A stretch of DNA of 64,000 bases from Gemmatimonadota bacterium (GCA_020348925.1 CP070758.1:3239688-3303687); one strand, 5' to 3'. Shown: positions 6,426 through 60,779, numbered from the stretch's first letter. Translations and numbers: made by a program. Notes: generated by a model from the sequence alone, not told the origin.

Positions 6426-8396
6426 ATGGCATCGAAAAAACCTGTTCTCGACATGTTTCAAGCGGCCCACGCCCTGGAGTATGGAGCGAAATTCTACAAG
6501 GCCGATTTCCATTTTCATACGCCGGCTTCTGAAGATGCCCGGGGAAAAAATCGGTATAATTTCAATCCGTACAAGATAAAATACCCACCGAAGGAAAAGA
6601 CCCCCGGTTATGGCCGCGCAGTGAATGAAATCCAGAAAACGATCTTGAAGGATGCCCGTAAAATCGCGGCGGATATTGTGCGTCGTTTTTGTGAGGTCGA
6701 CCTCTCACTGGTTGCTGTCACCGACCACAACGGCATTGGTACAATTTGGGCCGATGATGAATCTACTAAGAAAGCCATGGATTTGGCCGCTCCCACCTGG
6801 TATGAGCTGATCGACGATGAGGCCCGGAAAGTGAACAGGAGGGAGGGGAAGACAGTCTTGACGATATTCCCCGGCACCGAAATCAGCACAACCGGGATAC
6901 ACATCTTGGCGATTTTTCCGCCTCAAAATCCCCGCAGGAAAGTTCATTTCATGATCTGCGACCTGTTGAACGAGGTCGGCTTTGCTGTCGATGATTGGGG
7001 GAAAAATCCGAAAGTTGGGACGGCGAGTCCCTTTAATGCGATTCGTCTCATTGTTCAGAAAGGCGGAATTCCAATACTGGCGCATATTGACGGCAGCGAT
7101 CAGGCCATTTTGAAACTGTACAAAATCAATAGCGGTGCAATGAAGAATGTGCTTCGCCACAAACAACTCTGTGCCGTCGAGATCGTGAAGCCGTCACGGT
7201 TTTCGAAAAAGGATAAGAAGTTACAAAAAACGCTGAAAGACTGGATCGATATACTGCGCTTGAAGGAGGACCTAACGCCCCTTGCATATTTTCAAGGCTC
7301 CGATGCCCATGATCTGCCGACCGTTGCGAAGAGACACACCTACCTCAAGATGACCGAGCCATCTTTTTCAGGTTTTCGAACCGCAATCAAAATGCCCTCA
7401 TCACGGGTGAGAATTTCAGATGTCCAGACGCCGGAGTTCGAGGGGCTGTATATTCACAGCGTGGCCGTCCATAATTCATTCTTCGGCAAGCAAATGTTGA
7501 GGTTCAATCGTCATGCGAACTGCATCACCGGCAAGAAAGGATCGGGGAAATCTTATATTTTCGACTTGATGCAGGCCGCGGTCGATCCGGAGTTTCCTCA
7601 CGCGCAGGGGGAGGTGACTCTGTTTATTGAAAAGCTGAAGGGTGCAGCGTCGCAGTATTACGCGTTTTCGCGCAGCAAGAAAGACGATCATGTCAAATTA
7701 TATTCTCTCGGGGACAGTGCAACGACCGCTCAAGAGATTGATTTGGAGCAGGCCGATAATTTACACATACAACCGAATTTTTACAACGCTGCGAGAATCG
7801 AGGAACTGATCTCGTCGAGGGAGGGATTGAACTCCTTTTTGGTGAAACATTTTGGAAACCCAACAGAAAAGAACAAGCGCCGTTTCAATAAAAAGTTTTC
7901 AATTCCCTCTTTTCTTCGAGAGAAGGACGAACCGCTGCTGTTCCTCGAGTCGGATAGTGTTGGCTCCAAGCTCTCTGTCAATATCCAATGGTATACAGGC
8001 AAGCCAAAAATGAGAGACTTCTTCACCCTCAGCAGGAGTCTGCGAAGGACGGCCTTGATGTGTATGGTTATTGTCATGAGCGATTTCGGTCCGGTAATTA
8101 TTGACGCACCGGAGACACACTTTGACAATGAGGATATCGCACAGTTCCTTGTGCCCCTCATCAAAAGATATAAAGATTACCAGCAGGTGATTCTCTTTAC
8201 GAACAATCCTCTGTTGGCCGTGAATACGGATCCTGACAATTACATTCTTTTAGAAACCAGAGGGGAAAAAGTGAAGAAAATCATATCGGGTTTTGCCATC
8301 GATGACGAACATCAAAAACCCTGGCTTCTAAAAATAATGGAAGGAAGTCTCCGTTCATTCCACAGACGCGCCGATAGATATGAGATTAATGAGTAA
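6426..8396 (+). CDS. PHP phosphoesterase-ABC/SMC-type ATPase fusion (Ppl/TrlF-like), compact, ATPase partly degenerate
   Basis: PHP motifs DFHFHTP, VTDHN, GTEI, AHID, GSDAH; Walker A GKKGSGKS; Walker B IIDAPETHFDN; AAGGAGG RBS. Confidence 0.75.
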   Translation: MASKKPVLDMFQAAHALEYGAKFYKADFHFHTPASEDARGKNRYNFNPYKIKYPPKEKTPGYGRAVNEIQKTILKDARKIAADIVRRFCEVDLSLVAVTDHNGIGTIWADDESTKKAMDLAAPTWYELIDDEARKVNRREGKTVLTIFPGTEISTTGIHILAIFPPQNPRRKVHFMICDLLNEVGFAVDDWGKNPKVGTASPFNAIRLIVQKGGIPILAHIDGSDQAILKLYKINSGAMKNVLRHKQLCAVEIVKPSRFSKKDKKLQKTLKDWIDILRLKEDLTPLAYFQGSDAHDLPTVAKRHTYLKMTEPSFSGFRTAIKMPSSRVRISDVQTPEFEGLYIHSVAVHNSFFGKQMLRFNRHANCITGKKGSGKSYIFDLMQAAVDPEFPHAQGEVTLFIEKLKGAASQYYAFSRSKKDDHVKLYSLGDSATTAQEIDLEQADNLHIQPNFYNAARIEELISSREGLNSFLVKHFGNPTEKNKRRFNKKFSIPSFLREKDEPLLFLESDSVGSKLSVNIQWYTGKPKMRDFFTLSRSLRRTALMCMVIVMSDFGPVIIDAPETHFDNEDIAQFLVPLIKRYKDYQQVILFTNNPLLAVNTDPDNYILLETRGEKVKKIISGFAIDDEHQKPWLLKIMEGSLRSFHRRADRYEINE

Positions 8397-42030: not shown

Positions 42031-42089
42031 ACCTATTGTATAATCCTTTGATGGAGTTTCAAGGACGTGTCGTATTCAAAGGGGTCGAT

Positions 42090-45116: not shown

Positions 45117-45225
45117 AGTTGGAAACTATAGATTTCGCTGATATGATTCAAAAATTCTAGGAAGTAGCAATGTAATGTAAGGCGAGGAGGAATAATTATT
45201 TTTCTGATATAAGGGTGTGTTGAGA

Positions 45226-46950
45226 ATGTCAAAGAAAACATCGTTTCTTATCACTGTCATTCTGTGTTGCCTGTGTTTGCTGATATCGGGCGTGCGGGAT
45301 TGTGTCCCTCAGAATGCTGTTGAAGTTGGATCTTCGGATAATATTCTTATTATTGAAATCTGGAACATATGTGTGTGGTGTGGTATTCCGTTCGTTACCA
45401 TTTCAGTGATTCATATTCCCTGGTTTTTACCTCGAATCTGGCCGCTGGAAATAACAACAGTTCCAGAGAATATTGTCAAAGGAGACAAAGGAAGAGCGGT
45501 CTTTACGTTCGATGTCGCTTCGGATTTAGGACTCAGAGGGAAGAGTGATGGCGAGCTCACCGGGTCTCTCGTTTTCCACATATCATCAGGTAGTGGCTAT
45601 GACACAACACAAACTGTGGAGTTGGTTGTTTCGGCCGAGCAGATACTCTCTGCTGAGACTGGGTATGGAATTCCCGGAATGATAAGCCAGGCTGTCAACA
45701 TGGATCTGGAAAATGAGGCTGATGTGAGCTTTGTGCATTTTACATTGAATTATGTGGGTGATCTCATGGAAGTGTCCGAAATAAGTCCCACTTCTCGGAC
45801 ATCGGGGATGAAATTAAGTTGGGAGGAAATCGAGCCGGGTAAAACTCGGGTGAGTATGGCAGCTCCTGAGATTATTGGTCCTGGAGAGGGCCCTATCGCC
45901 CAATGTTATTTCAATGTCTATCAAGCGACGACACCTGGTGAGTCTATTTTTGTAACCTTGTCAGATGTATTTCTCCAGGACCCCGAAGTAAGCCCTCTCA
46001 GTGTCGGCTTAAAGTCCGGCCAGTTTCTGTTCGGTAAAAAGGGAGAGGTCAACGGGGATGGGGCGATCAATGTGCTGGACCTCCTGACGGTTGTCAATAT
46101 AATTTTGGAAATCCACGTGCCGACAGGATACCAATTATGGGCCGCCGATTGTAACGGGGACGGAGTGATCAATGTTCTGGACGTTCTGGGCATTGTCCGT
46201 GTCATTTTGGGTTTGGGTCCGTGTTCATCGCTCGCGCCACCCTTGAAGGGGACGTTTGTCCAGACCCAGGTGACCGTCTCAAATCCCTTGGTGCACACCA
46301 GGGGAGAGGTGTTGATACCGATTGATGTCAGGGCAACCCAACCGGCAGCCGGTTTTCAGTTGCGGATGTCCTACGATGCCAGCAAGCTCGTCCCCGGAAA
46401 ACCTCAGAGCACACCGCGCAGCGCCGCCATGACTCTGGCATCGCAGGCCCAATCCGGGGCGATCACGCTGCTCCTTTACGGCCAGAGAGGAGAACGGATA
46501 CCTGTCGGCGCCGGACCGGTTGTCGTCCTGCCGTTTCGAATTCTTGACGGGGTTCGGGGGGATGCCGGACTGGAGTTTGAGGACATTCTTGTGGCCGGTC
46601 TTGACTGCGCTTCCATGCCCGTTGAAGTGCCTTATCCCGACATCTCATTGGATCTGGGGCTGCCGCTGCCGACCGTCTATTCTCTCGCCCAGAACTACCC
46701 CAATCCTTTCAATCTGCAGACGGTGATCGAATATCAGCTTCCCCGCGAGGGTCGTGTCGTTCTGACAGTTTACAACATTGTGGGCCAAGAGGTGTGCACT
46801 CTGACCGATGAGGTCAAGGAGGCCGGCTACTATACGATCAGATGGGACGGCAGAGACACCAGTGGGGTATCGGTGGCCAGCGGGCTCTATTTCTACCGGC
46901 TCCAGGCCGGCACCTTTAGGCAGACGATGAAGATGTTGCTTCTCAAGTAG
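45226..46950 (+). CDS. Secreted cohesin-dockerin-cohesin protein with T9SS-type/FlgD-Ig C-terminal domain
   Basis: Dockerin pair GEVNGDGAINVLD / DCNGDGVINVLD; YSLAQNYPNPFN...WDGRD...SGLYFYRL...KMLLLK. Confidence 0.8.
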   Translation: MSKKTSFLITVILCCLCLLISGVRDCVPQNAVEVGSSDNILIIEIWNICVWCGIPFVTISVIHIPWFLPRIWPLEITTVPENIVKGDKGRAVFTFDVASDLGLRGKSDGELTGSLVFHISSGSGYDTTQTVELVVSAEQILSAETGYGIPGMISQAVNMDLENEADVSFVHFTLNYVGDLMEVSEISPTSRTSGMKLSWEEIEPGKTRVSMAAPEIIGPGEGPIAQCYFNVYQATTPGESIFVTLSDVFLQDPEVSPLSVGLKSGQFLFGKKGEVNGDGAINVLDLLTVVNIILEIHVPTGYQLWAADCNGDGVINVLDVLGIVRVILGLGPCSSLAPPLKGTFVQTQVTVSNPLVHTRGEVLIPIDVRATQPAAGFQLRMSYDASKLVPGKPQSTPRSAAMTLASQAQSGAITLLLYGQRGERIPVGAGPVVVLPFRILDGVRGDAGLEFEDILVAGLDCASMPVEVPYPDISLDLGLPLPTVYSLAQNYPNPFNLQTVIEYQLPREGRVVLTVYNIVGQEVCTLTDEVKEAGYYTIRWDGRDTSGVSVASGLYFYRLQAGTFRQTMKMLLLK

Positions 46951-47014: not shown

Positions 47015-47044
47015 GCCGCGGGAGGAACTCTCGCGGTGGCTTTT
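47015..47044 (+). terminator. Possible intrinsic terminator
   Basis: GCCGCGGGAG-GAA-CTCTCGCGGT hairpin followed by GGCTTTT. Confidence 0.45.
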
Positions 47045-47108
47045 CGTCTAAGAATTGTGATGTGAATACGGCGCGATGGAGCGACTCTGCTCGACTGAGA
47101 AAAAATGC

Positions 47109-47137
47109 TTGACATGATCTTTTTTCATTTATATCTT
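47109..47137 (+). promoter_or_regulatory. Sigma70-type promoter of the porU operon
   Basis: TTGACA-17 nt-TATCTT. Confidence 0.55.
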
Positions 47138-47379
47138 AGTGCACGCATTTTGCATGAGATCGTGTGGAGAATTGATAAGAGAATAGAAGAGAAAAGGATT
47201 AGCGTATAAAAGTTCGTTAAAGGGTTTGGTTGTATCGCTCTTTTGAGCATGTTTTTCAAGAGTCACGAGAGGCTCAAAAGGAAGAAATACTAAGGCATCC
47301 AACCACAGGCCCTGAGGCGAGCTTTCTTTTTTAGAAGGCCGGGTTGGAGAGAGTACCAGACCCGGTATTTTTATGTTCT

Positions 47380-50300
47380 ATGAATTTTGGACGAAACATA
47401 GCCGTGGTTTTCGGAGTACTCATGTGGGGTGCTCCCTTGAACAGCGCCCTGGAGACGGCCCGATCCGGAGAGACGGGGCTTCTCCTGCGGAGAACCGATG
47501 AGACAGGAGTAACCTTCGACTATTACGTGCCGGAGATTGAGGACATGACCTTTCCCTTCGATGGTCAGATATACCATCGCGTCAGGCTCGCCGGTTTCGG
47601 GTGTACGGATCAGGTGGGCGCTCCTCAATTGCCTCAGATGAGGCTTCTGGTGGGTGTTCCCCTGGAGGGTGATGTTGAGGCAGCACTTATTGATGCCGCG
47701 TATGAGGAGAGGGGGGGCTATCGCGTTGGTCCGGTTCCGACACTCGTTCGTCCCACCGAAGCTGAGGATACCTTCTTTCGGGAGGAGTACATCCCTCATC
47801 CGGAGTTTTACTCCGAAGACGCCTTTACCCCGGAGCGTGTCATCGAGGTTGAACAACCCTCCTTTCTCAGAAATCAACGGGTCGCGGCAATCATTCTCCG
47901 CCCCCTTCAATTCAATCCGGTTACAGGTATCCTCCGAATTCATTCCAAAATATCCGTGTCCATCCGCTTTCGAGGAAGCGGGACTGTATCGCCCTATCCC
48001 CAAGGGTCCTCGGTGGATCACTTCGAGAACGTCTATCAAAGGACGCTCATCAATTATGAGACGTCCAAGCGATGGCGAAAGCGACCGCACGTACGACTGG
48101 AAAAGGGCTCTCTTTTTCAAGACGATGCGGAATGGATCAAGATGACGGTCAGAGAAGATGGTATCTATCGAGTGGATTTTGATGATCTGTCGGAAGTCGT
48201 TGAAGATATGGCGGCCATCGATCCCGCCACAATCAGGATCTCCTATGGGGGTGGGAGGGAGCTCCCGAGAGATGTCTTTGAGCCGCGTCCGGATTCTCTC
48301 ACAGAGATTGCCATCATTGTGAATGGGGAGGAGGATGGGACTTTTGATGCTGGGGATCACATCATTTTTTATGGGCAGGGGGTCTCAGGTTGGGATTACG
48401 ACCCCGATGTGGATGACTACGCGCACTACTTCCACAGGTTTACGGACGACAACGTCTACTGGTTGACCTTTGGGCCGAATGGGCAGCAGGGCAAGCGGAT
48501 GACCGCCAAAGACGGTTCGCCGACCGCTCCCAATCCAGAGCGCTTTCATGGCTTTCGAGACAGGATCCACGAAGAACATGAGGGCATCAACCCCAAGGCT
48601 TCGGGCTTGACGTGGTATTGGCGGACCTCCTCCGGAGGAGAGACGGGGTCCTTTCGGGCGGATTTGCCCGGGGCCCTGCAGGACTCTGTGTGCACGGTAT
48701 CGCTCAGGATGAAGGGGAAGACGAGGGGTCAAGTGGCTGTCCATGAGGTCAAGGTCTCCTTCAATAATCGACTCATTTCCCACGAAACGTTTCACAGTGA
48801 AAACGTACTCACGATTCAAGAGAGTGGGCGTGGTTGGGTCGTTGACGGGGAGAACGAGCTGAGAGTCGAGCATGTGCGACAACCGGGCTCAGATCCCACG
48901 ATCCAGGATCAGTTCTATTTCGACTGGTATGAAATCAGATACTGGAGGCGCTTTGAGGCTCATCACGGCTCGCTTGCGTTTTCGGCTCCGCGGGGCTCGG
49001 AGGTTGTCGAGTATCGTCTGTCCGGTTTCCCGGAGGATTCAATCCTGGTGTTCGATGTCACCGATCCGGAGAATGTGGCCGCCCTGTATCATGTGACTCG
49101 AGACGAGACGCTTGCATTTCAGGATGTTCAAGATCCTTTCATCGAGAAACGATACCTGGCTGTGGCATTGGAGCGGATGAAGAGTCCCATAAGTATCGTC
49201 GGAGCAGAGCCCTGGGAACTGAGGGATCCATCGAACAGGGCCGACTATCTTATTGTGACCCACGAGGGTTTTGTCCCGGACGTGGAGCCGTTGAGAGCCC
49301 ATCGCCGGGATTTTGACCCCGGATACGAGGCGAAAGTGATCACCACCTCCGCCATTTATGACGAGTTCTCCTGGGGGCTCTTCGATCCGACGGCGATCCG
49401 GGATTTTTTGAAATATGCTGCCGGAAACTGGGAGGTTCAGCCGGAATATGTCCTTTTAGTGGGGGACGGTAATTACGATTATAAGAACAACTCTCTCACA
49501 AGTCCTGGAAACTGGGTCCCGCCCTACGAGAACGGCAGTGAGGCCTACGATGACTGGTACGTCTATCTGGATGCAGGTATCCTGCCTGATATGTGTATCG
49601 GTCGGCTCCCGGCCCGGTCGAGACAGCAGGTGCAACATATGGTGGCGAAGATCATCGACTACGATCTTCGGCCCACGTTCGGACAGTGGCGGAACCGAAT
49701 GCTCTTCATGGCCGATGACGAACTGGTTGGCTGCCAGGAGGAATCCTGGAACGTCCGTCATACCAATGACTCCGAGACGGTGTCCGACACTCTTCCGAAG
49801 AATTTCCAGCAGATCAAAATCTATCTCATGGGGTACGAGCTCGGCCAAAACTGCGAAAAACCCTCGGCCAACGAGGATCTGTTGACGCATTTGAACAAGG
49901 GCGTTCTTCTCTTCAATTATATCGGTCACGGGGGATACAACGTCATGGCCGACGAGCATGTCTTTCGAAGTTCCAGAGATCTGCCGAGGCTGACGAACGA
50001 ATCGATGCCATTTCTTTTAGCCGCCTTCACCTGCGATGTGGGGGTGTTTGATCATCCCATTGAGGAGAGTATGGCGGAGGATCTGGTCAGGCTGGAGAAC
50101 CGGGGAGCCATTGCCTCGGTTGCCGCTTCGCGACTGACCTCGTCCGGACCGAACCTTGACCTGAGCCAACAATTTTATTCCAATCTTTTCTTGAGTGGTT
50201 TTGGGCATGGGAAAACCCGGCCCCTCGGGATGGCCCTGTTGGAAGGAAAGGTGGAAGCGGCCAGCGCCTCAAACGGCCGTCTGTACCTCCTCTTCGGAGA

Positions 50301-51369
50301 TCCGGCCCAGACGCTTGGTACCCCCCGTCATGAAGTCGTTCTGACGCACCTCGAGCCGGCGACGTTGCAGGCTTTAAATATGATCACCCTTGAAGGAGCT
50401 GTGGTTGATAGTACTGGAACGATCCTGCAAGAGTTCGAGGGGACAGCGATTGTGGATGTTTTCGATTCGCTCAGAGATATTATCCACATCACTCCGGAGA
50501 CGAACAGGGAGGTCCGCTATCAGCTCCCAGGTGCGGTCCTTTTCCGAGGGTTCGTGCCCGTGACACAGGGAACGTTTCGGACGCAGTTCGTTATTCCGAA
50601 AGATATAACATATGACGGTACGACGGGGCGACTGTGTGTCTACGCGTTCAGAGAAGCGTCGGACGGAGTCGGCTACAGAGACTCCTTATCCACGGTTGGG
50701 GGGAGTGTTGAGGTCGTCGATTCCGTCGGACCCCTGATCGAATTGACCATCAAGGGACGTGAGGAGACGTTCGCCGAAGGCGATTACGTTCGATCCGATG
50801 AGATCTTGACGGCGACACTCTTTGACAGCAGCGGCATCAATCTTACCGGGGAGACGGGCCATTGGATTGTGCTGCGAATAGATGGAGACGATGGCACCCG
50901 CCAGGATCTGACCTCCTCCTTCGTCTACGAGGAGGGCAGTTATCAGAAGGGTACCATCGAGTATGAATTGTCGGATCTGAATGCCGGCGATCATACGATA
51001 GAAGTCAAAGCCTGGGACAATCATAACAACGCCTCGGTACAGTTGCTTTCGCTGCGAGTGGCTTCGGCCGAGGATTTTCGTCTCCTGCATGTGATGAATT
51101 ATCCCAACCCTTTTTTCAGAGAGACGAACTTCACGTACGAGTTGACAGGACCGGCCAGAGAGGTTCTCATCAAGATCTATACTGTGGCCGGACGCCTGAT
51201 CGAGACCTTTTCTGCTCCCGGTGATCTCGGTTTCAATCATATCTCGTGGGAGGCGTATGATAGAGATGGCGATGCCCTGGCCAACGGTGTCTATCTGTAC
51301 AAAATGATCGCATCAGGGATCGAAGGGAGACGCCACGAGGTCATTGGGAGACTTATCATTATGAAATAA
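47380..51369 (+). CDS. porU: Type IX secretion sortase PorU-like (peptidase C25) with propeptide and CTD
   Basis: IYDEFSWG..DPTAIRDFL, LLVGDG.YDYK, IGRLP, NYIGHGG (His), FTCDVG (Cys), LFGDPA, VKAWD..NN, NYPNPF. Confidence 0.85.
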   Translation: MNFGRNIAVVFGVLMWGAPLNSALETARSGETGLLLRRTDETGVTFDYYVPEIEDMTFPFDGQIYHRVRLAGFGCTDQVGAPQLPQMRLLVGVPLEGDVEAALIDAAYEERGGYRVGPVPTLVRPTEAEDTFFREEYIPHPEFYSEDAFTPERVIEVEQPSFLRNQRVAAIILRPLQFNPVTGILRIHSKISVSIRFRGSGTVSPYPQGSSVDHFENVYQRTLINYETSKRWRKRPHVRLEKGSLFQDDAEWIKMTVREDGIYRVDFDDLSEVVEDMAAIDPATIRISYGGGRELPRDVFEPRPDSLTEIAIIVNGEEDGTFDAGDHIIFYGQGVSGWDYDPDVDDYAHYFHRFTDDNVYWLTFGPNGQQGKRMTAKDGSPTAPNPERFHGFRDRIHEEHEGINPKASGLTWYWRTSSGGETGSFRADLPGALQDSVCTVSLRMKGKTRGQVAVHEVKVSFNNRLISHETFHSENVLTIQESGRGWVVDGENELRVEHVRQPGSDPTIQDQFYFDWYEIRYWRRFEAHHGSLAFSAPRGSEVVEYRLSGFPEDSILVFDVTDPENVAALYHVTRDETLAFQDVQDPFIEKRYLAVALERMKSPISIVGAEPWELRDPSNRADYLIVTHEGFVPDVEPLRAHRRDFDPGYEAKVITTSAIYDEFSWGLFDPTAIRDFLKYAAGNWEVQPEYVLLVGDGNYDYKNNSLTSPGNWVPPYENGSEAYDDWYVYLDAGILPDMCIGRLPARSRQQVQHMVAKIIDYDLRPTFGQWRNRMLFMADDELVGCQEESWNVRHTNDSETVSDTLPKNFQQIKIYLMGYELGQNCEKPSANEDLLTHLNKGVLLFNYIGHGGYNVMADEHVFRSSRDLPRLTNESMPFLLAAFTCDVGVFDHPIEESMAEDLVRLENRGAIASVAASRLTSSGPNLDLSQQFYSNLFLSGFGHGKTRPLGMALLEGKVEAASASNGRLYLLFGDPAQTLGTPRHEVVLTHLEPATLQALNMITLEGAVVDSTGTILQEFEGTAIVDVFDSLRDIIHITPETNREVRYQLPGAVLFRGFVPVTQGTFRTQFVIPKDITYDGTTGRLCVYAFREASDGVGYRDSLSTVGGSVEVVDSVGPLIELTIKGREETFAEGDYVRSDEILTATLFDSSGINLTGETGHWIVLRIDGDDGTRQDLTSSFVYEEGSYQKGTIEYELSDLNAGDHTIEVKAWDNHNNASVQLLSLRVASAEDFRLLHVMNYPNPFFRETNFTYELTGPAREVLIKIYTVAGRLIETFSAPGDLGFNHISWEAYDRDGDALANGVYLYKMIASGIEGRRHEVIGRLIIMK

Positions 51370-51437
51370 GGAACAATTGTGTTCGGGATGTGTCTAATAG
51401 AAATGTTTCACAGTACATCTTTGAAGGAGGTAACGTC

Positions 51438-52493
51438 ATGAAAAGACTTCTTCTTATCATGGTATTGGGAGCGGTCCTCATGGTCTGCTCGTCCGAGGTC
51501 TATGCCCAAAGCGAGGCAGCGGTTCTGTACCTCATGATCAAACCGGGTGCTCGGGCCGCGGGATCTGGAGAGGCCTTTGTCGCTACGGCCGATGATGCCT
51601 GGGCAACCTACTATAATCCGGCGGGTTTGGGTTTTCAGAAAGGAAAAGTATTTGGAATGTCTCATACGAATTGGCTGCCTGCCTTCGCCAACGACCTCTA
51701 TCATGAATTTTTCGCCTACGCCTGGGAGCAGGAGGGTTGGGGTAATTTTGGCGTGAGCGCTATTTACATGTCGTACGGTGAACAGGTGAGGACGAGCGAA
51801 GTCGGAGATATCTTGGGGACCTTTCGCTCATTTGATACGGCGGTCGGACTCTCGTACGGAGCGCTCCTGTCGGATCGGTCATCGGCGGGCGTCACGATGA
51901 AGATTCTTTACAGTCGTTTGGCTCCCGAGGGGACGGGGGGCGAGAAGGGTTCCGGCACCGGGACGTCCTACGCCATCGATTTGGGTTTTCTGAAAAAAAA
52001 GTTTCTGCTCAGCGGCCTCTCCTTGGGGATTGCGCTTCAGAATGTCGGACCGTCCATTGCTTACATCGACGCCGAACAGGCTGATCCGTTGCCCCAGAAT
52101 TTAAAAATCGGATTTGCCTATGAAATCTTCAAGACCGAATATAACAGCCTCATCCTGTCGGCCGATTTCAGCAAGATACTGGTCAAGAAAGAGGAGGATA
52201 AAGCCGATGTCTTCTACAAAGCACTCCTTACCTCCTGGTTTGATAAACCCTTTAAAACCGAAATGGACGAAGTGATCGAAAATATCGGTTTCGAGTATTG
52301 GTACGGATCCTGGGTCGCATTGAGAGCGGGATTCTTCCGGGATACCTATTATAATACAGGAGAGGGGAAGCCCTATTTAACCTTTGGGGCAGGGCTGAAA
52401 TACAGCATGTTCGTCTTCGACGCCGCTTTCATACCGGCACCGGATTCTCCCCTGGCCGACAATACCCGTTTTTCATTGAGCATCAGATTCTGA
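51438..52493 (+). CDS. porV: PorV/PorQ-family outer-membrane beta-barrel
   Basis: L.I.PGARAAG.GEAFVA.ADDA.A.YYNPAGL, HTNWLP, DPLP, LRAG, C-terminal Phe; GGAGG RBS. Confidence 0.85.
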   Translation: MKRLLLIMVLGAVLMVCSSEVYAQSEAAVLYLMIKPGARAAGSGEAFVATADDAWATYYNPAGLGFQKGKVFGMSHTNWLPAFANDLYHEFFAYAWEQEGWGNFGVSAIYMSYGEQVRTSEVGDILGTFRSFDTAVGLSYGALLSDRSSAGVTMKILYSRLAPEGTGGEKGSGTGTSYAIDLGFLKKKFLLSGLSLGIALQNVGPSIAYIDAEQADPLPQNLKIGFAYEIFKTEYNSLILSADFSKILVKKEEDKADVFYKALLTSWFDKPFKTEMDEVIENIGFEYWYGSWVALRAGFFRDTYYNTGEGKPYLTFGAGLKYSMFVFDAAFIPAPDSPLADNTRFSLSIRF

Positions 52494-52564
52494 TGGAGAT
52501 GGCCAAGTGAGGACGCTTGATGTAGGAAATGATGCTGCAGAGATTCAATAGAAGGGAAGGGCAC

Positions 52565-55500
52565 ATGGCTTTCAAACGACTGGCATCTGTCATACTCTCC
52601 GTCGGGATCAGCCTCCTGAGTTCCACCGGCGTCAAGGGAGACGGGCAAGGCGATGACTCTGGGAAGCTCCATGCACTCCGGAAGAGCGGTGTCTCGACGT
52701 CAAACCTTTTGGGGTTGAACCGGCAGGGACCCGGACGTCTCCCCAAAGTGTTCGCTTCGGAGGAATCCGACACCATAAGACTCTTGGCCTTGCGGATTGA
52801 ATTCCAGCCGGACAGCAGCGATCCTGAAATCACCGGAGATGGTACCTTCGATCTTTCCACGGATTCTGAGGCCGAGATCGATCCGCCGCCTCATGATTAC
52901 GACTACTTCGAACGCCATTTGCGATTCTTGAAGAATTACTACGATGCCGTGTCTCACGGAAGATTGATTCTTGCGTACGATCTCTTTCCGCAGGAAGCCG
53001 AAGCTCCCTTAGTTCTTCCAGGCACCATGGCTCGTTATACCTCAGGTGCGACGGAGGCGGAGAACGACAGTCTCTTGGCCGTCTTCTTCCGCGACGCCAT
53101 TCAATTGGCCGACTCGTCCCTTCAGGAATTGACCTTCTCCTCGTACAACAGCTTTCTCGTCTTTCACGCAGGGGTAGGGCGCGAGAGCGACCTGCGGCGG
53201 GACTCCAAAAAAGATATTCCTTCAGCCTTTTACAATTTCGATGAATTCAAAAAATATTTGGCTGGCGATGCTCCTAATTATCAGGGCATTCCGTTTCAAG
53301 GCGGGTTTGTCCGGGAAGGATGGTGGTTGCCGGAGACGGAGAGTCAGGACGGATATGAACTGGGGCTCAATGGGATCGCAGCGCATCTGTTCGGGTATCA
53401 ATTGGGATTGCCGAGTCTGTTCGATTCCAATACCGGTCGGTCCGGTATCGGCTTATGGGGACTCATGGATCATGGGTTCGAGAACTATGCAAGCCGCATT
53501 CCGGCGCAGCCCTGTATCTGGTCTAAGGCTTTTCTGGGATGGGTGGCGCCTTTCGAGGTTCGGAACAGAAGGGAGGATCTCGAGATTGCAGCATGGGCCC
53601 TGAATAGCGGCAGCGCCGAAGCCGTCAAGGTGAACATCACGCCGACCGAATATTTCTTGATCGAGAATCGGCAGCGGGATGTTGACGGCGATACGACAAT
53701 AACGGTCGAAGGGGGCGTCGTTGTGGCTGCCGATGATTACGATTGGGGCCTTCCCGGATCAGGACTGCTGATCTGGCATATCGATGAGCAGGTCATTGCC
53801 GATGGGCTCTCGAGCAATGCGGTCAATGTCGATGCCACACACAAGGGCGTTGATCTCGAGGAGGCCGACGGCGTGCAGGAGATCGGGGCCAGCTACGGAT
53901 GGATTTTCGGCCATGATGAGGACGCCTACTATGCCGGGAATGAATCAGCGGCGTTGGCCAACGGGATCTCCTTCACCCCGACATCGGTTCCCGACAGCAG
54001 GAGCTCTTCGGGGGCGAACAGTCATATTCACGTGACGCATATCAGCGAGTCCGGTCCTGTCATGAGTCTCAAAGTGTCCCTGGATACGTACCAGGACGGC
54101 TGGCCGCAATTCCTGGGTGCAACGATCGGTACGAATTCGCCGGTTTCTGGTGATCTGAACAATGATGGAGATATAGAAGTTGTGTTGGCTTCAGAGGAGG
54201 GAAAAGTTTTTGTCTGGAATCACGATGGATCGAAGTTCATCTCGAATGCTGACTCGGTATTTATGATTGATCCAAAAGGCGACACAACCTGGGTGCAAGC
54301 GGCGGTCTTCGCGGAGACCGAGGATTCCATCCTGTCTTCCCCGGCATTGGGTGATCTGGATGGGGACGGGACTTTGGAGATTGTCGTGGCCACGGCTCAG
54401 GGTGCCGTTTATGTCTGGCATCCCCGGGATACTGATGCGGATGGACGTGCGGACATTAAAAATGGATTTCCCGTTCTCATAGAAAGTGGCATTGTGGGAT
54501 CTCCGGTGCTGGCTGACGCGGGGCGGGGGGCGGAAGGTTTCGAAATCGTCATGGCCATCGAGGATGGTCTCGGCGTCGCTTTGGAGGCAGATGGGGATAC
54601 GTATTGGACGGACGCGAGCCGGTGGTCTAATTCGACAACGCCTTCGGCTTCGGATCTGAATGGTGATGGATTTTCTGAAGTCGTGTTCGGATCTGACGAC
54701 GGGTTCACGAAGATCTGTGATATTGATTTGATGCAACCCAGTCTGACGCTGGGTTCGAGTGATGGGCCTGTTGTTGGCTTGGCCATCGGTGATCTTGACA
54801 GAGTTGAAGGAAATGACGTCGTGACTGTTCTGCAAAATTCGATAAAAATGCATTACGATTTTGCTTCAGGCGATGGAGACAGAGGCAACGCTGTGGACGC
54901 GCCTCTCCAGAGCCCACCGGCGTTGGGTGACCTCGATGGCGATGGTTTCTTGGAGGTCGTGGTCTCGGGATCAAACAAAATCCATGTTTTCAACTATAAT
55001 GCGTCCTTTTCCCCAAATTGGCCGGTGACGGTGAATCGAGCGAGCCCGAGAGACGGCCCGTATTCTTCGGCGGCAATCGGTGACATTGATGGTGATGATG
55101 AACTCGAGGTTCTTGCCGGATCACCAGGGGGACAACTCCTGGCCTATCATCACGATGGAAGTGTGGTTGATGGTTTTCCTTTAGCCTGCGGTGGAGCGGT
55201 GCATTCGACGCCGGCTCTGTTGGATGTCGACGGTGATGGGGATGTTGAGGTGATGGTCGGAGCCGATGACGGGTACCTGTATATGTGGGACCTTCCCGGG
55301 ATATACGATGTAGAAAATATACCCTGGCCCATGTATGCCCACGATGCGCAGCATACTGGGGCATATCCGGCATCTCACCTTCCGCCGGATATTCCTGAGG
55401 AGGAATTGCTCTCGGAGGCATCGGTCTACAACTTTCCCAATCCGACGGAGGGGAATTCGACATTGATCCGATATCGACTGGGCCGTGAGGCATCGGTCAC

Positions 55501-55687
55501 GATTAAAATTTTCAATCTCGCTGGGGAACTGGTGGACGAATTCACAGGACCCGGTTCCGCGCATACCGAAAACGAGGTGCGCTGGGATCTCACCGACTTT
55601 GCCTCAGGGGTATACATCTGCCGGGTTGAGGCGAGCGGTTCCCAGGGGACAGAGGCGGCTTTCTGTAAAATAGCCGTGACGAAATAA
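52565..55687 (+). CDS. M6 (immune inhibitor A)-like metalloprotease homolog with FG-GAP repeats and CTD; zinc motif degenerate
   Basis: FHAG, AHLFGYQLGLP, WGLMD.G, EYFLIENRQ, GLLIWHIDE, several GDLDGDG repeats, NFPNP...SGVYICR. Confidence 0.8.
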   Translation: MAFKRLASVILSVGISLLSSTGVKGDGQGDDSGKLHALRKSGVSTSNLLGLNRQGPGRLPKVFASEESDTIRLLALRIEFQPDSSDPEITGDGTFDLSTDSEAEIDPPPHDYDYFERHLRFLKNYYDAVSHGRLILAYDLFPQEAEAPLVLPGTMARYTSGATEAENDSLLAVFFRDAIQLADSSLQELTFSSYNSFLVFHAGVGRESDLRRDSKKDIPSAFYNFDEFKKYLAGDAPNYQGIPFQGGFVREGWWLPETESQDGYELGLNGIAAHLFGYQLGLPSLFDSNTGRSGIGLWGLMDHGFENYASRIPAQPCIWSKAFLGWVAPFEVRNRREDLEIAAWALNSGSAEAVKVNITPTEYFLIENRQRDVDGDTTITVEGGVVVAADDYDWGLPGSGLLIWHIDEQVIADGLSSNAVNVDATHKGVDLEEADGVQEIGASYGWIFGHDEDAYYAGNESAALANGISFTPTSVPDSRSSSGANSHIHVTHISESGPVMSLKVSLDTYQDGWPQFLGATIGTNSPVSGDLNNDGDIEVVLASEEGKVFVWNHDGSKFISNADSVFMIDPKGDTTWVQAAVFAETEDSILSSPALGDLDGDGTLEIVVATAQGAVYVWHPRDTDADGRADIKNGFPVLIESGIVGSPVLADAGRGAEGFEIVMAIEDGLGVALEADGDTYWTDASRWSNSTTPSASDLNGDGFSEVVFGSDDGFTKICDIDLMQPSLTLGSSDGPVVGLAIGDLDRVEGNDVVTVLQNSIKMHYDFASGDGDRGNAVDAPLQSPPALGDLDGDGFLEVVVSGSNKIHVFNYNASFSPNWPVTVNRASPRDGPYSSAAIGDIDGDDELEVLAGSPGGQLLAYHHDGSVVDGFPLACGGAVHSTPALLDVDGDGDVEVMVGADDGYLYMWDLPGIYDVENIPWPMYAHDAQHTGAYPASHLPPDIPEEELLSEASVYNFPNPTEGNSTLIRYRLGREASVTIKIFNLAGELVDEFTGPGSAHTENEVRWDLTDFASGVYICRVEASGSQGTEAAFCKIAVTK

Positions 55688-55696
55688 GGAACAGAC

Positions 55697-58600
55697 ATGC
55701 GTCGAATAGGCTTTCAAGGAGCGAAACTCATACTTCTGACTGTCGGAGTGATGTGCGCATTGCAGCTGCAAGCTCACGGATACAACCACCCGGAGTTGAA
55801 CTGGCGGACTTTTGAGACCGAGCACTTTCTCATCCACTACCATGAGGGGGTGGAGCGCACGGCGGGGAAAGCGGCCCAGATTGCCGAGGAAATTTACGGC
55901 CCGGTGACCTCCCTGTACGACTATGAGTTTGAGGACAAAATACATCTCATCTTTCGCGATGATGATGACTACGCCAACGGAATTACGTATTACTACGATC
56001 ACAAAATCGTCATCTGGGCGACGAGCATGGATTACGAATTGCGCGGCACGAGCGATTGGCTGTGGAACGTGATCACCCATGAGTTCACCCATATGGTCAG
56101 CCTGAATGCTGCGCGAAAAATCTATCGTCAGATTCCGGCCTTCTATTTTCAGTATATCGATTATCAAGAAGAGAAGCGACCCGATGTGTTCATCGGTTAT
56201 CCCAATCGTCTCGTCTCGTATCCCTTTGCCATGACGGTCGTACCCATGTGGTTCGCCGAGGGGATGGCCCAGTGTCAGGCTCCGAGTTGCAGTTACGATT
56301 GCTGGGATTCCCATCGGGATATGATCCTGCGCATGGCCGTTCTCGAGGGGAACATGCTCAGCTACGACGAAATGTGTGTTTTCGGGAAATCGGGTCTGGG
56401 GAACGAACAGGTGTACGATCACGGTTACGGATTGGCACGGTATATTCTCGACGCCTACGGTCCTGAAAGCCTGGGGAAAATATGTCGGGCGATGAGGCCG
56501 TTGCACCGCATTAATTTCGACGGAGCGACAAAGCGGGTCCTGGGGAAAACGGGGGAGGACCTGTACCAAGAGTGGGTCGTCAAAATGAGGGACACGTATG
56601 AAGCCGTCAGGCGGGAGCGCGGTGAGCCTCAGATCGAAGGGGAGATGCTCACGACGACGGACGATGGCTACCTGAATATTCATCCCTGTTGGTCGCCGGA
56701 CGGCAAGTCACTGGTCTATCTGTCCAACAGAGGCAGTGACTACAGTGCTCTCGGTCTGTATCTGCTCACGTTTCCCGACAGGCACGCCCAAAAAATTACT
56801 GGTGGTATCAGCTCTCCACCATCGTGGTCGTCGGACGGTACGGAGATCGTGTACTCCAAGCGGAACCGCCCGAACAGGCACGGCTCCCGTTTCAACGACC
56901 TCTACATATATACTATTGGAGAACGCAGACAGAAGAGAATTAGCCGCGATCTTCGGGCCAAGGATCCCGCCTTCTCGGCCGATGGAAGACAGATTGTGTT
57001 TGTGTCCAACAGCGATGGGAGCAATAACTTGGGGATAATGAACGTTGATGGGTCTGACATACGATATATAACCAATAGTGATGATGGCACCCAGTACTAC
57101 AATCCGCAGTGGTCCCCGGATGGCCAACGGATCGTCTTTTCAGAATCGAAGGGGACCCACAGGAACATTGCCATGATCGCACCTGACGGTTCCGACTTCC
57201 GATACCTCGTCGTCTCTCCGGGTGACGATCGAGATCCCTGCTGGACGCCTGACGGAAAGGAGATCATTTTCAGTTCCGATATCGACGGCATCTTCAACCT
57301 CTATTCCTACTCCCTGGAGAACGAGCAGTTCTCTCGCCTCACCAACGTTCTGGGCGGAGCCTTCATGCCCTCTTATTCGTCCAAGAAGCAGATCTCCTAC
57401 GCCTCGTACAGTTCGAAGGGTTACAGCCTTGTCGTTTTCGCGGATACGTTCGAACGTCATGAGGTGGCCTTTGCCCAGTATGATCCTTCGGAGGTCGCCG
57501 AGTGCGTTCCCAATCCCGGGGACCCGGTTGATGTGACATCCGTCTCCGAGCCTTACAAGATGACCTTTTCCAGCTTCTTCATCTATCCCCGAATTGCCGT
57601 CGATTACGGGACGCTGAAAGGCGGATTCTACTTCTCGAACGGCGATATCCTTGAGAAGCAATCGCTCTTCGCCGGGGCTCAGATGAACAGGGACAAGGAT
57701 CTTGACCTCTTCATTTTGTATGAGGTGCGACAATTTGCCCCAACGCTCTTTCTTGAATTCTACAAGCAGACGAGACACGAGAAGATCGCCGGGATCGACT
57801 CGTTCTACTATGAGGACCAAGATTACCAGACCCGGTTGGTCGAGTATTTGGATCAAGAGCGCTCGTTTAATTTGAATGAAGCGAATGTCGGATTACGCCA
57901 CAATCTCAATATTCTGCCCCTATTCTCCAATAATCAGGAGGTCAGTTTCACGGCACGATACAGCTCCTACGCCGGTGATTATCAGGCCATCGCAAAAAAC
58001 TATGTCCATCCGGACACGGCAGAAGCCTTCGTCGATTTTTTCAAGTATACTTATTTTAAAGGTTTTGATTTTATACTGAGCTGGAAAGACCGGTTCCTGA
58101 ATGGGACATTCGATGAGGAAATTAATCCCTCGGCCGGACATAATATTGAGCTGACCTACGCGCGCCTCTATCACAAATTCCTCGATCCCGAGAATCCCTT
58201 TAAATTGGGGACGTTTGGGATTCAATGGATCTATCGGAACTATTTCTACAATCGGCTCACCCTCGACTGGGAGCAATATATTCCGATGCCCCTGGACCGG
58301 CACACCCTCACGGCCAAACTTCGGGCCGGAATCATTCGGGCCGGGATCTTAGACGACCCGGAGATCGATGATTTCTTCAATTTTTTCGTCGGCGCTATCG
58401 ACGGATTGCGGGGCTATTCGTACTACAGCATCGAAGGCAAGAAAATGCTGCTGGGACGGTTGACGTATCGGTTTCCTATCTTCAAGAGCATGGGGAAACA
58501 ACTTCTTCATCTTCATTTCGACAAGCTGTACGGGGCGGTCTTCGCTGATGCGGGGAACGCCTGGAACGGCGATAAGCTCGATCTGTGGGAGTTCAAGAAG

Positions 58601-58789
58601 GATGTGGGGGCCGAACTTCGTCTGGAAACCTACTCCTTCTATACATATCCCACAAGGGTTTTCTTTCAAGCGGCCTACGGCTTCGATCGTATAGTGAAAG
58701 AAGAGCGGGTCAACGGGAACGTTTTACGGGACGTCATATCGGAGCCGGGATGGCGTTGTTATTTCGGCGTTCTTTTCGGATTTCTGTAG
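55697..58789 (+). CDS. Gluzincin-like / TolB-like (PD40) / Omp85-type barrel fusion protein
   Basis: THEFTH...WFAEG; repeated WSPDG/FSADG/WTPDG; LRGY and FADAGNAW barrel motifs. Confidence 0.8.
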   Translation: MRRIGFQGAKLILLTVGVMCALQLQAHGYNHPELNWRTFETEHFLIHYHEGVERTAGKAAQIAEEIYGPVTSLYDYEFEDKIHLIFRDDDDYANGITYYYDHKIVIWATSMDYELRGTSDWLWNVITHEFTHMVSLNAARKIYRQIPAFYFQYIDYQEEKRPDVFIGYPNRLVSYPFAMTVVPMWFAEGMAQCQAPSCSYDCWDSHRDMILRMAVLEGNMLSYDEMCVFGKSGLGNEQVYDHGYGLARYILDAYGPESLGKICRAMRPLHRINFDGATKRVLGKTGEDLYQEWVVKMRDTYEAVRRERGEPQIEGEMLTTTDDGYLNIHPCWSPDGKSLVYLSNRGSDYSALGLYLLTFPDRHAQKITGGISSPPSWSSDGTEIVYSKRNRPNRHGSRFNDLYIYTIGERRQKRISRDLRAKDPAFSADGRQIVFVSNSDGSNNLGIMNVDGSDIRYITNSDDGTQYYNPQWSPDGQRIVFSESKGTHRNIAMIAPDGSDFRYLVVSPGDDRDPCWTPDGKEIIFSSDIDGIFNLYSYSLENEQFSRLTNVLGGAFMPSYSSKKQISYASYSSKGYSLVVFADTFERHEVAFAQYDPSEVAECVPNPGDPVDVTSVSEPYKMTFSSFFIYPRIAVDYGTLKGGFYFSNGDILEKQSLFAGAQMNRDKDLDLFILYEVRQFAPTLFLEFYKQTRHEKIAGIDSFYYEDQDYQTRLVEYLDQERSFNLNEANVGLRHNLNILPLFSNNQEVSFTARYSSYAGDYQAIAKNYVHPDTAEAFVDFFKYTYFKGFDFILSWKDRFLNGTFDEEINPSAGHNIELTYARLYHKFLDPENPFKLGTFGIQWIYRNYFYNRLTLDWEQYIPMPLDRHTLTAKLRAGIIRAGILDDPEIDDFFNFFVGAIDGLRGYSYYSIEGKKMLLGRLTYRFPIFKSMGKQLLHLHFDKLYGAVFADAGNAWNGDKLDLWEFKKDVGAELRLETYSFYTYPTRVFFQAAYGFDRIVKEERVNGNVLRDVISEPGWRCYFGVLFGFL

Positions 58790-58802
58790 ACTGCAATTTG
58801 CG

Positions 58803-58896
58803 TGTCATGAAAGGAGGGATCGTGGGACTGTTTTTGACTGTCATGAAGGGAGAGATCAGGGGACTCTTTTCCACTGTAATGAAAGGGGACGTCATG
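58803..58896 (+). repeat. Imperfect 36-bp tandem repeat (about 2.6 copies) over an RBS region
   Basis: TGTCATGAAAGGAGGGATC / TGTCATGAAGGGAGAGATC / TGTAATGAAAGGGGACGTC at 58803, 58839, 58875. Confidence 0.75.
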
Positions 58897-59919
58897 CGAC
58901 TTAGTATATGGACGGTTATGCTGTGCGCTGCGATAGCAGGTGGAGGTTTGACCGATACGAGCAGAGCGAACCAGACCTTCGGGCCCAGAGCGATCTATTC
59001 GCCATTTCAAGCTATCGGAGACGGTTCGGAAACGGCGGAACAGGCTTCTCTTTCCCAGGCCACCGCGGGGCAGGATACGGTGGCAGAGGAGAAGGTCGAA
59101 ATCGTTGAGGTGAAGAAACCGGGCAGGGCCTTTTTCATGTCGGCGCTGGTTCCCGGCTTGGGTCAGTGGTACGCGGAAGCGAAAATTCGGGCCGCCGTTT
59201 TTTTCGGCCTTGAAACCGCGGCGACAGCGTGGGCCATCATGGCTCAACTTTCTGGTAATGATAAGGAGGATGAGTACAAGGTCTTTGCCGACAAATATTG
59301 GGATGTTGAGAAGTATAACGATCAAAGATATGACGAGGTTCAGAATAGAGTGATTCCCCCTACGGCCGCAAGCTGGTATGGAGCGTGGAGTCAGTGGTAT
59401 GAGGATAATAGCGCCTTGATCACGCTGGATGAAGAGCTGACCCACAGGTTACCGGAGATTGAGGTCGACAGAACGTTTCGGGGCTGGGATAAAACTCATG
59501 ATTACTACGAAATGATCGGGAAGTACGACCAGTTCGTTTACGGCTGGGATGATGTCTGGGGACCTCCTCTGAATCTTTTGCCCGGGGATAGCACGTTGGC
59601 TCCGAACCATGATATAGGTATTTGGGTGTTGGCCGGAGTCGATTCTGCCCATTTTGACCCCTATATTGCTGACGTGAAATCGGCGCACCGCGATCAATAT
59701 ATGAACATGCGCCACGAGGCCAACAAGGCCTTCAAACGGGCCAAGACAATGTTTGGCGTCATCCTCTTCAACCATGTGATCAGCGCCATCGATGCGGCTC
59801 GGTCCGCCAGAAGTTACAATCTGAAACACGCCGAGAATAAGACGAGCGTGCGCTTGCGCATGAAGAAGTATGAAGGTGAGTATATCCCGCAACTTGTTCT
59901 ATCACATAAATTTTACTGA
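58894..59919 (+). CDS. Exported/membrane hypothetical protein (DUF5683-like N-motif)
   Basis: Signal peptide, KKPGRAFFMSALVPGLGQWY, YYEMIGKYDQF..GWDD, NHVISAIDA. Confidence 0.7.
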   Translation: MRLSIWTVMLCAAIAGGGLTDTSRANQTFGPRAIYSPFQAIGDGSETAEQASLSQATAGQDTVAEEKVEIVEVKKPGRAFFMSALVPGLGQWYAEAKIRAAVFFGLETAATAWAIMAQLSGNDKEDEYKVFADKYWDVEKYNDQRYDEVQNRVIPPTAASWYGAWSQWYEDNSALITLDEELTHRLPEIEVDRTFRGWDKTHDYYEMIGKYDQFVYGWDDVWGPPLNLLPGDSTLAPNHDIGIWVLAGVDSAHFDPYIADVKSAHRDQYMNMRHEANKAFKRAKTMFGVILFNHVISAIDAARSARSYNLKHAENKTSVRLRMKKYEGEYIPQLVLSHKFY

Positions 59920-60008
59920 TCACTGTGACGGTTCTTCAGGCTTGGAGTTGGGCCCGTGCCTTTTCCGAAATCCTGCGGGATTCACTCTGTCACATTAGCT
60001 GAGGGCTT

Positions 60009-60779
60009 ATGAAAATACTATCGACAATTCTCATTGGTGTTTTTACGTTTTGTGCAGCGCACGTTTTCGGCGAAGCGAATTCGGGCTGTGATGGCCTGGC
60101 CCGAAGGACATCTGCCAAATTTCCCGCTGTGGTCGAGTGCATCTCGACCCCGGATCCTCAATCGCCATCTCTGCCCCAGGACAGGCGCGAGGCTCCCAAA
60201 TCTCCGGGCAAAGCATTTTTTCTGTCTCTCCTTGTGCCGGGTTTGGGCGAATGGTACGCCGGATCGCCCCAGAAGGGAAAGATCTTTTTGGCTGCCGAGG
60301 CGGCCGTGTGGTCAAGCTTCGCAGCCTTTGAACACTATAGCGCCTGGAAAAAGAGAGATTACGAACTTTACTCCGTGGCTCACGCAAACGTTTCCCTGGA
60401 GGGGAAGGATGACGATTTTTTTAAGCATGTCGCGGCATACACTGATGTCAGGAGCTACAACGAGGATCGGTTGCACGCCAGAGAATGGAATGACGTTTAC
60501 TGGGACGAAGACTTCTACCATTGGCAGTGGGACAGCCCAGAATCACGGGAAAAGTTCAACGAGGTTCGGGATGCCAGCCGCAAGGCTCATCGGCGTGCCC
60601 TCAACATGGTCGGAGCAGCCGTGTTGAATCGGGTCATCAGTGCCATCGACGCGGTTCGGACAGCCAAGACCTTCAATAAGAAAGTTCGGGAAAATGATAC
60701 CGGTTTTCACCTCGGCTTCAAAGTACGCGGTAGCATTCGAAATCCCAAAGCCCTCATTGTCCTGAATAAGAATTTCTGA
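60009..60779 (+). CDS. Paralogous exported/membrane hypothetical protein (DUF5683-like N-motif)
   Basis: KSPGKAFFLSLLVPGLGEWY, W.WDS, NRVISAIDA, C-terminal Phe. Confidence 0.7.
   Translation: MKILSTILIGVFTFCAAHVFGEANSGCDGLARRTSAKFPAVVECISTPDPQSPSLPQDRREAPKSPGKAFFLSLLVPGLGEWYAGSPQKGKIFLAAEAAVWSSFAAFEHYSAWKKRDYELYSVAHANVSLEGKDDDFFKHVAAYTDVRSYNEDRLHAREWNDVYWDEDFYHWQWDSPESREKFNEVRDASRKAHRRALNMVGAAVLNRVISAIDAVRTAKTFNKKVRENDTGFHLGFKVRGSIRNPKALIVLNKNF

Follow-up and report, generated by a model that had tools for sequence, protein, structure and literature searches.

A window of 64,000 nucleotides from a Gemmatimonadota bacterium (GCA_020348925.1, CP070758.1:3239688-3303687; "the window" hereafter) carries a true porU-porV operon to which an envelope module of four genes, conserved and so far undescribed, is linked. 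The module comprises PorV, an inactivated M6-like protease (M6i), a fusion protein with an Omp85-type barrel (called OmpF here), and one or two DUF5683 proteins. We think it somewhat probable that the module is an accessory branch, hitherto unrecognised, of the attachment and processing step in T9SS (the type IX secretion system), built around PorV, through a mechanism that we infer below; it is unlikely to take the place of the translocon or the motor. The six genes of the window cluster are as follows, where CTD denotes the C-terminal sorting domain of T9SS substrates.

47344-51369, + strand: PorU, the T9SS sortase or C-terminal signal peptidase, with a CTD of its own.
51390-52493, + strand: PorV-type outer-membrane barrel, the CTD shuttle and first gene of the core module (NF033709, NF033710, 6h3i_F).
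52529-55687, + strand: M6i, a dead M6-like metalloprotease domain with beta-propeller repeats of the FG-GAP type and a CTD of type A (NF052323, TIGR03296, FG-GAP, TIGR04183).
55697-58789, + strand: OmpF, a fusion of peptidase-MA domain, TolB propeller and Omp85 barrel (Pfam PD40 4e-24, Omp85 5.4e-10, Peptidase_MA_2 2e-4).
58894-59919, + strand: DUF5683a (PF18935), with a probable start at ATG 58894.
60009-60779, + strand: DUF5683b, a shorter paralogue of DUF5683a.

All six are real open reading frames (ORFs), close-packed between 47344 and 60779 with successive intergenic gaps of 20, 35, 9, 104 and 89 bp. A preliminary description, made from the sequence alone, had listed a porU with intact catalytic His and Cys residues, a porV, a CTD-bearing pseudo-M6 protease, a gluzincin-TolB-Omp85 fusion and two paralogous membrane proteins; ORF, profile and alignment evidence bear it out in every item, and the evidence for each gene is given in the paragraphs that follow.

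PorU scores 737.5 bits against NF033707 (cutoff 420) over model positions 4-1094 of 1095, which places it within the equivalog. Its C25 domain matches the Pfam family Peptidase_C25 at 2.7e-89, and its type A CTD matches TIGR04183 at 26.7 bits (cutoff 23; residues 1253-1323). When it is aligned to Porphyromonas gingivalis PorU (6za2; E 9e-73), the GHGG and TCD motifs, which we take to carry the catalytic His and Cys, fall in register. The aligned region begins at query residue 247 and is preceded by a Propeptide_C25-like domain of the gingipain type (6e-20; residues 76-242, in window 47344-48100), also present in four of the six PorUs scanned from other loci; this domain hints at zymogen-style control of the sortase.

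PorV reaches 264.4 bits against the PorV/PorQ family model NF033709 (cutoff 90) and 190.8 bits against the PorV equivalog NF033710, below the cutoff of 250, while the PorQ model gives 75.4 bits against a cutoff of 220; the match to Flavobacterium johnsoniae PorV (6h3i_F) has an E value of 1.9e-23. Among module PorVs from other loci, all eight scanned score higher with the PorV model (162-272 bits) than with the PorQ model (53-92 bits). Two of the eight pass the PorV equivalog cutoff (256 and 272 bits), and five of the eight loci lack an adjacent porU.

M6i scores 528.5 bits against NF052323, below the equivalog cutoff of 600, and is best treated, by profile score, as a divergent member of that family; it matches TIGR03296 at 2.4e-21, and its CTD scores 31.1 bits against TIGR04183. 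At the HExxH position the window protein reads HLFGY, and an intact HExxH is found in none of the 55 aligned family members (0/55). The type A CTD is present in all 45 M6i members scanned, each of which also matches NF052323. Because the motif is absent from all 55 and the CTD present in all 45, we regard M6i as a fixed pseudo-enzyme that is predicted to depend on T9SS. A reading in which the barrel would be PorQ and M6i would be PorZ was dropped: the barrel scores as PorV in 8/8 loci, and M6i matches the PorZ model in the CTD alone (24.7 bits, residues 964-1050).

OmpF consists of a peptidase-MA domain (about residues 36-307), a TolB-type propeller (about 320-590), a linker (596-614) and an Omp85-type barrel (about 617-1030). 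The barrel scores 39.7 bits against Omp85 PF01103 (cutoff 24; residues 725-967), as expected of a member of the Omp85 superfamily, and 19.1 bits against the TamA equivalog (cutoff 625), which leaves it outside BamA and TamA; Pfam reports no POTRA domain in the protein. The Peptidase_MA_2 match is weak (21.7 bits, below the cutoff of 32.4), and residues 30-312 group with Peptidase MA-like clusters in the Atlas at scores of 0.95-0.96. The gluzincin signature, H128-E129-x-x-H132 with E188 (xAEG), is invariant in 80 of 80 sequences, and since the HExxH and the downstream Glu are kept in all of them OmpF is probably a working zinc protease. An AlphaFold2 model (predicted local distance difference test, pLDDT, 80.5; predicted template modelling score, pTM, 0.79) shows a helical or mixed N-terminal domain, a propeller and an all-beta C-terminal domain (617-1030), with a disordered linker at 596-614 (pLDDT below 50). 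An OmpF profile searched against the PDB finds TolB at 4e-34 and the TamA barrel weakly (E 0.011-0.035), and Foldseek with the whole protein likewise returns TolB as its top matches, the propeller dominating and the barrel being left unplaced by structure. Likeness to TolB is confined to the propeller, as OmpF scores 144.2 bits against TIGR02800 (cutoff 343) and so falls outside TolB, and no tol-pal genes stand beside OmpF among the window ORFs scanned. Of 31 matches to short forms of the OmpF barrel, almost every one comes from a contig shorter than 6 kb or is flagged as partial, and they provide no good evidence of a free-standing barrel.

DUF5683a scores 27.4 bits against PF18935 (cutoff 26.7), and its probable start codon is preceded by a GAAAGGGG box; DUF5683b scores 23.0 bits, below the same cutoff. 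The two are paralogues by BLASTP (25% identity, E 6e-14), and both contain a signal peptide, a helical hairpin with the PGxGxxY motif and long helices, the chain closing with a C-terminal beta-hairpin that has an aromatic last residue. The AlphaFold2 model of DUF5683a (pLDDT 74.5) places helices at 97-135 and 264-314 and the hairpin at 317-338; a fold search of this model against the PDB gave no match at E <= 0.001 (best E 4.6), and the protein falls among Atlas DUF5683 clusters at scores of 0.96-0.97. In 25 aligned homologues from the second position the final residue is F (22), W (1) or L (2), and in 81 complete DUF5683 C-termini it is F (55), W (22), L (3) or G (1). To judge by these sequences, the aromatic ends follow the pattern of outer-membrane beta-strand ends.

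Conservation of the block was surveyed with an alignment of 20 OmpF homologues, from which a scan of genome contigs yielded 80 loci (numbered with an L prefix), flanked on either side by as much as 10 kb; six-frame ORFs from these loci were searched with the window proteins, and the denominators below are loci with enough flanking DNA. M6i lies directly 5' of OmpF in 65 of 72 loci (at least 1 kb upstream). Where at least 4.8 kb upstream is available, M6i is present in 55 of 60 loci, PorV is present in 55 of 60, and the pair PorV-M6i stands directly upstream of OmpF in 55 of 60. At least one DUF5683 gene follows OmpF in 58 of 65 loci (at least 0.9 kb downstream), and two follow it in 32 of 65. 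Strand and order of the module genes are common to the loci that carry them. From these counts, with PorU in about half of the loci, the conserved core is PorV-M6i-OmpF-DUF5683; in the window it takes a more complete form, headed by porU and closed by a pair of DUF5683 genes. The survey thus supports the view that the four extra genes are conserved partners of porV and not chance neighbours.

Carriers of the module are labelled as about nine phylum-level groups of the Fibrobacteres-Chlorobi-Bacteroidetes (FCB) bacteria. In a FastTree phylogeny of 72 OmpF sequences, for which support is SH-like only, clades track the lineage labels: Latescibacterota/Gemmatimonadota/Krumholzibacteriota; Fidelibacterota; Calditrichota/Electryoneota/LCP-89; KSB1; and Ignavibacteriota/Kryptonia. 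Of these, the first, a clade of 18 rows with support 100, includes the window OmpF, whose branch is long and whose best identity is 47%. Because the clades follow the labels, the module looks vertically inherited and its linkage ancient. Loci labelled Bacteroidota, Chlorobiaceae or Deferribacteres nest within the Ignavibacteria or KSB1 clades, and we therefore read these labels as loose. The window AccA shares 62-66% identity with proteins of Gemmatimonadetes, Calditrichaeota, Ignavibacteria and KSB1, with closer matches at 72-85%. The OmpF tree, the OmpF homologues and the AccA identities together mark the organism as an FCB bacterium that is poorly sampled and does not belong to the classical Bacteroidia.

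Two further ORF families were seen next to M6i in parts of this sample. A 221-amino-acid family without a match in NCBIfam lies between M6i and OmpF in 14 Ignavibacteria-type loci (L025, L027, L028, L029, L034, L038, L039, L041, L042, L043, L053, L054, L058 and L078; e.g., L042:9298-9960). One Latescibacterota group (L033, L046, L051, L065 and L076; e.g., L046:5615-6958) has a 448-amino-acid protein between PorV and M6i that weakly resembles the ScyD/ScyE family and the N-terminal part of PVC-type haem-binding CxxCH proteins.

The preliminary description had also noted that no PorKLMN or SprA genes lie nearby, and had proposed a variant CTD-dependent machine in which the Omp85 fusion and the paralogous pair stand in for those parts. 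The absence is real within the window: no member of the GldK, GldL, GldM, GldN or SprA families was found in the nine ORFs in or beside the cluster or in 31 further likely-gene ORFs, and the SprA of locus L028 gave no tblastn match there. Nor were T9SS core families found in the flanks of non-Ignavibacteria loci, in 91 of 158 representatives (at least 200 amino acids) scanned at E <= 1e-12; the same scan yielded one CTD cargo, in L021. In its fullest form, which we consider very improbable, this alternative holds that in the lineage of the window and further deep FCB phyla lacking recognisable SprA and GldKLMN the CTD proteins would exit the periplasm by an Omp85 route, with OmpF as both conduit and processing protease, PorV handing over cargo and oligomers of the DUF5683 hairpin forming part of the outer-membrane assembly; if this were true, type IX secretion would exist in another form, Omp85-based and possibly ancestral. 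Omp85-family barrels can indeed export proteins, as TpsB and PlpD do according to the accessible part of PMC4104836. The portion of the Caldithrix abyssi genome paper available to us records that Bacteroidetes-type gliding machinery was not found in this species, which carries the module (L045), and the part of Abby et al. drawn on here reports complete T9SS in Bacteroidetes only.

Several observations speak against a machine that dispenses with PorK/L/M/N and SprA and uses the DUF5683 pair in place of other canonical parts, and we give it very little credence. The accessible part of Abby et al. describes T9SS genes as scattered even in model genomes, with four components as loners and the remainder in two clusters, and for this reason their absence from a 64-kb window or from 10-kb flanks says little. 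SprA itself (TIGR04189, 1032 bits) is encoded about 3.5 kb 3' of the module in L028, L039 and L048, the only loci among the 80 in which L028 SprA has a tblastn match; the ORFs there, of 2089 residues, are cut by the locus end, and the SprAs are about 54% identical to each other. Module and canonical translocon therefore coexist in one Ignavibacteria-type clade, and the conservation of the module leads one to expect a single function throughout. Moreover, by their scores PorU and PorV are closely related to their Bacteroidota counterparts, and the OmpF barrel is of modest size and has no detected POTRA domain, whereas SprA is very large (model length 2319). The step from a lack of core genes nearby to a stand-in machine is thus not supported; of the original proposal, the conserved linkage of the extra genes stands and their role as substitutes does not.

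A processing or attachment station around PorV fits best, because the block combines a CTD shuttle, a CTD protein with a dead protease domain, a barrel-tethered protease predicted to be live and a pair of membrane proteins. PorV would bind and hold the CTDs of cargo proteins, and PorU, held by its own CTD, would cleave these CTDs and attach or transfer the cargo. PorU and PorZ of Porphyromonas are anchored through uncleaved CTDs. M6i may likewise be displayed at the surface, held on PorV via its own uncleaved CTD, and could act as a non-catalytic adaptor or scaffold binding a substrate, peptide, glycan or glycolipid, as PorZ serves PorU in Porphyromonas. OmpF would work as a zinc protease whose TolB-like propeller binds substrate and whose Omp85-type barrel anchors it to the outer membrane; it might clear or degrade released CTDs or stalled cargo, on the periplasmic side if its topology follows that of other Omp85 proteins. 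The DUF5683 pair would be helical envelope proteins whose aromatic-ended C-terminal beta-hairpin inserts into or beside an outer-membrane barrel.

Some findings weigh against a T9SS accessory role. PorU lies 5' of PorV in only 26 of 51 loci with at least 1.5 kb upstream of PorV, and in the 25 loci without it (KSB1, most Latescibacterota, Fidelibacterota) porV is preceded by housekeeping genes such as efp, accB, accC, gcvH and gcvPA. The three loci with SprA beside the module are sisters in the OmpF tree and so count as one lineage. OmpF is unaccompanied by M6i and the remaining module genes in seven of the loci with upstream DNA, mostly of the Krumholzibacteriia type (L001, L011, L013, L016, L024, L069 and L072). 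DUF5683 relatives occur in Bacteroidota as well, for example P. gingivalis PG0140, and to our knowledge have not been linked to T9SS there. A gene of the BamD family (TIGR03302, 97 bits, cutoff 81) directly follows DUF5683a in five Fidelibacterota-type loci (L080:13963-14751 and its four sisters), and genes for LptF/G-type permeases follow the module in five Ignavibacteria-type loci; together with the dcw cluster (mraZ, rsmH, ftsL, ftsI) found 3' of the window cluster, these neighbours point to general envelope biogenesis. Finally, a surface-exposed topology of the type Vd kind is possible for the OmpF protease.

A rival reading sees in the module a general device for outer-membrane protein assembly and quality control, in which an Omp85 barrel with a built-in periplasmic protease would work in the manner of BamA with a protease, DUF5683 proteins would be helpers, the linkage to porV would reflect joint regulation of envelope genes or a role of PorV as client, and M6i would simply be cargo. 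The loci in which OmpF stands alone, the BamD or LptF/G genes of some clades, the Bacteroidota DUF5683 proteins (the location of PG0140 being given as unknown in the part available to us of an outer-membrane-vesicle proteome listing) and the run of lipopolysaccharide (LPS) and polysaccharide genes upstream of the window cluster, with dcw genes downstream, are all in its favour, as is the comparison of the WD40-Omp85 subfamily to a BamA-BamB fusion in the accessible part of PMC4104836. We nonetheless consider such a device unlikely. What constantly accompanies OmpF is PorV, the T9SS shuttle, together with a CTD protein whose catalytic site is dead in 55/55 members, and a random cargo would not have held its position for so long; in addition, almost all of the named OmpF homologues and of the 80 loci bear labels of FCB lineages, which are known for CTD proteins.

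Another reading turns on the topology of OmpF; in it the protein would be a type Vd-like autotransporter whose Omp85 barrel exports its own protease and propeller, to yield a surface protease with a nutritional or maturation role beside PorU and M6i. The layout is suggestive, in that an enzyme at the N terminus is joined through a disordered linker (596-614) to an Omp85 barrel at the C terminus, and PlpD offers a precedent (PMC4104836, accessible part). By analogy with known CTD proteins, its partners PorU and M6i would be surface proteins. PlpD, however, has a POTRA domain, and none was detected in OmpF; a folded propeller of the 7-blade type (about 270 residues) would be a hard passenger for a 16-strand barrel, and TolB-type propellers are periplasmic in all solved relatives. 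We accordingly hold autotransport by OmpF to be improbable and retain the accessory branch around PorV as the favoured reading.

Three further features of the window adjoin or interrupt the cluster.

45217-46950, + strand: cohesin/dockerin CTD protein, a candidate T9SS cargo (Dockerin_1 1.5e-10, Cohesin 3.9e-6, TIGR04183 35.5 bits, cutoff 23).
47015-47137, + strand: consensus matches to a terminator-like hairpin (47015-47037) and, after it, to a promoter-like site (47109-47137).
58803-58886, unstranded: 36-bp tandem repeat in the spacer between OmpF and DUF5683a, 2.3 copies (score 112, 81% matches).

The first of these is the second CTD protein that had been reported just 5' of the cluster, and its profile score places it there as described. 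Its CTD is of type A; it has few relatives across the 80 fetched loci and stands outside the conserved module. The hairpin and promoter-like site are the likely 5' boundary of the cluster; the evidence is a weak consensus match, promoter-like sites being no commoner in the window (16 observed) than in shuffled sequence (13.5 +/- 3.9). The site at 47109 reads TTGACA, and the same position was the start coordinate in the preliminary description. Each copy of the tandem repeat holds a ATGAAAGGAG-like stretch. On the 5' side of the cluster, the cargo gene is accompanied by a gene for a HEAT-repeat protein and a long run of glycosyltransferase or LPS-type genes.

Elsewhere in the window, an ORF at 42036-44414 encodes a 792-amino-acid DUF7451 protein with a long Pro-Ser repeat run and a C-terminal HEIGH motif, in which no CTD was detected. 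A second Omp85-family ORF (92-1327) matches DUF5686 and Omp85; it covers just the middle and end of the DUF5686 model and may be truncated or mis-started. The ORF at 6426-8396 encodes an AAA-like ATPase of the TrlF/Spaf_1101 family (238.8 bits, cutoff 350), related to the anti-phage protein Ppl, and sits in a lower-GC stretch of the window (about 0.43-0.48).

T9SS has been dissected almost only in Bacteroidia. The block described here has stood beside porV since before the phyla diverged, if descent has been vertical, and contains a permanently dead protease, a protease predicted to be permanently live, and a pair of membrane proteins. Its genes offer concrete candidates for those parts of attachment and processing that are missing or peculiar to a lineage, and the module could help to answer which factor frees PorV of the cleaved CTD. 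Should the accessory role prove true, it would provide a function for the orphan WD40-Omp85 subfamily and for part of DUF5683.

In the literature searched, outside which lay most subscription-journal papers and bioRxiv supplements, we found neither the gene block nor any tie of OmpF or DUF5683 to T9SS described, no functional account of DUF5683, and no component-level survey of T9SS in these phyla; reviews, in the parts accessible to us, say that T9SS may exist in other FCB phyla and no more. The name of M6i (NCBIfam), DUF5683 (Pfam) and the WD40-Omp85 subfamily (Heinz and Lithgow 2014) were already known, and what is new, within that literature, is the PorV-centred, putatively accessory module.

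The closest relatives of the individual parts can be compared with the window proteins. The accessible text on the WD40-Omp85 subfamily (Heinz and Lithgow 2014, PMC4104836) describes, as in OmpF, a propeller closest to TolB ahead of an Omp85 barrel and no POTRA domain; unlike the present work, it makes no mention there of a peptidase-MA domain or of linkage to porV, M6i or DUF5683, and it assigns no function beyond the BamA-BamB analogy. The 'Metallo' Omp85 subfamily of the same text carries PF00149, a domain different from the peptidase-MA of OmpF. By analogy, PlpD-type (type Vd) autotransporters, and BamA with periplasmic proteases, resemble OmpF in that a 16-strand Omp85 barrel is paired, by fusion or as a partner, with an enzyme domain; OmpF differs from the former in lacking POTRA and patatin domains, and its passenger would include the whole propeller. 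NF052323, 'T9SS-dependent M6-like inactivated metalloprotease', shares with M6i its full-length domain order, dead active site and type A CTD, whereas the window protein falls under the 600-bit cutoff; the model gives a name and neither role nor partners. The DUF5683 proteins resemble PF18935 members such as PG0140 in their N-terminal PGxGxxY helical hairpin, which matches the Pfam model; they differ in matching only profile positions 3-74 of 151, in being longer and in occurring as a paralogue pair behind OmpF.

Among complete systems, the nearest are the PorU-PorV-PorQ-PorZ complex of P. gingivalis and the SprA-PorV shuttle of F. johnsoniae. Adjacency of porU and porV occurs in both species. 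The window cluster differs from known T9SS in adding OmpF and DUF5683 and in the extra N-terminal Propeptide_C25-like domain of its PorU, and from the P. gingivalis attachment complex in having no PorQ or PorZ homologue in the cluster. It resembles these systems in its adjacent PorU and PorV homologues (aligned to 6za2 and 6h3i_F), and the P. gingivalis complex in pairing PorU with a second large propeller protein, M6i here and PorZ there, both partners of the pair bearing a CTD.

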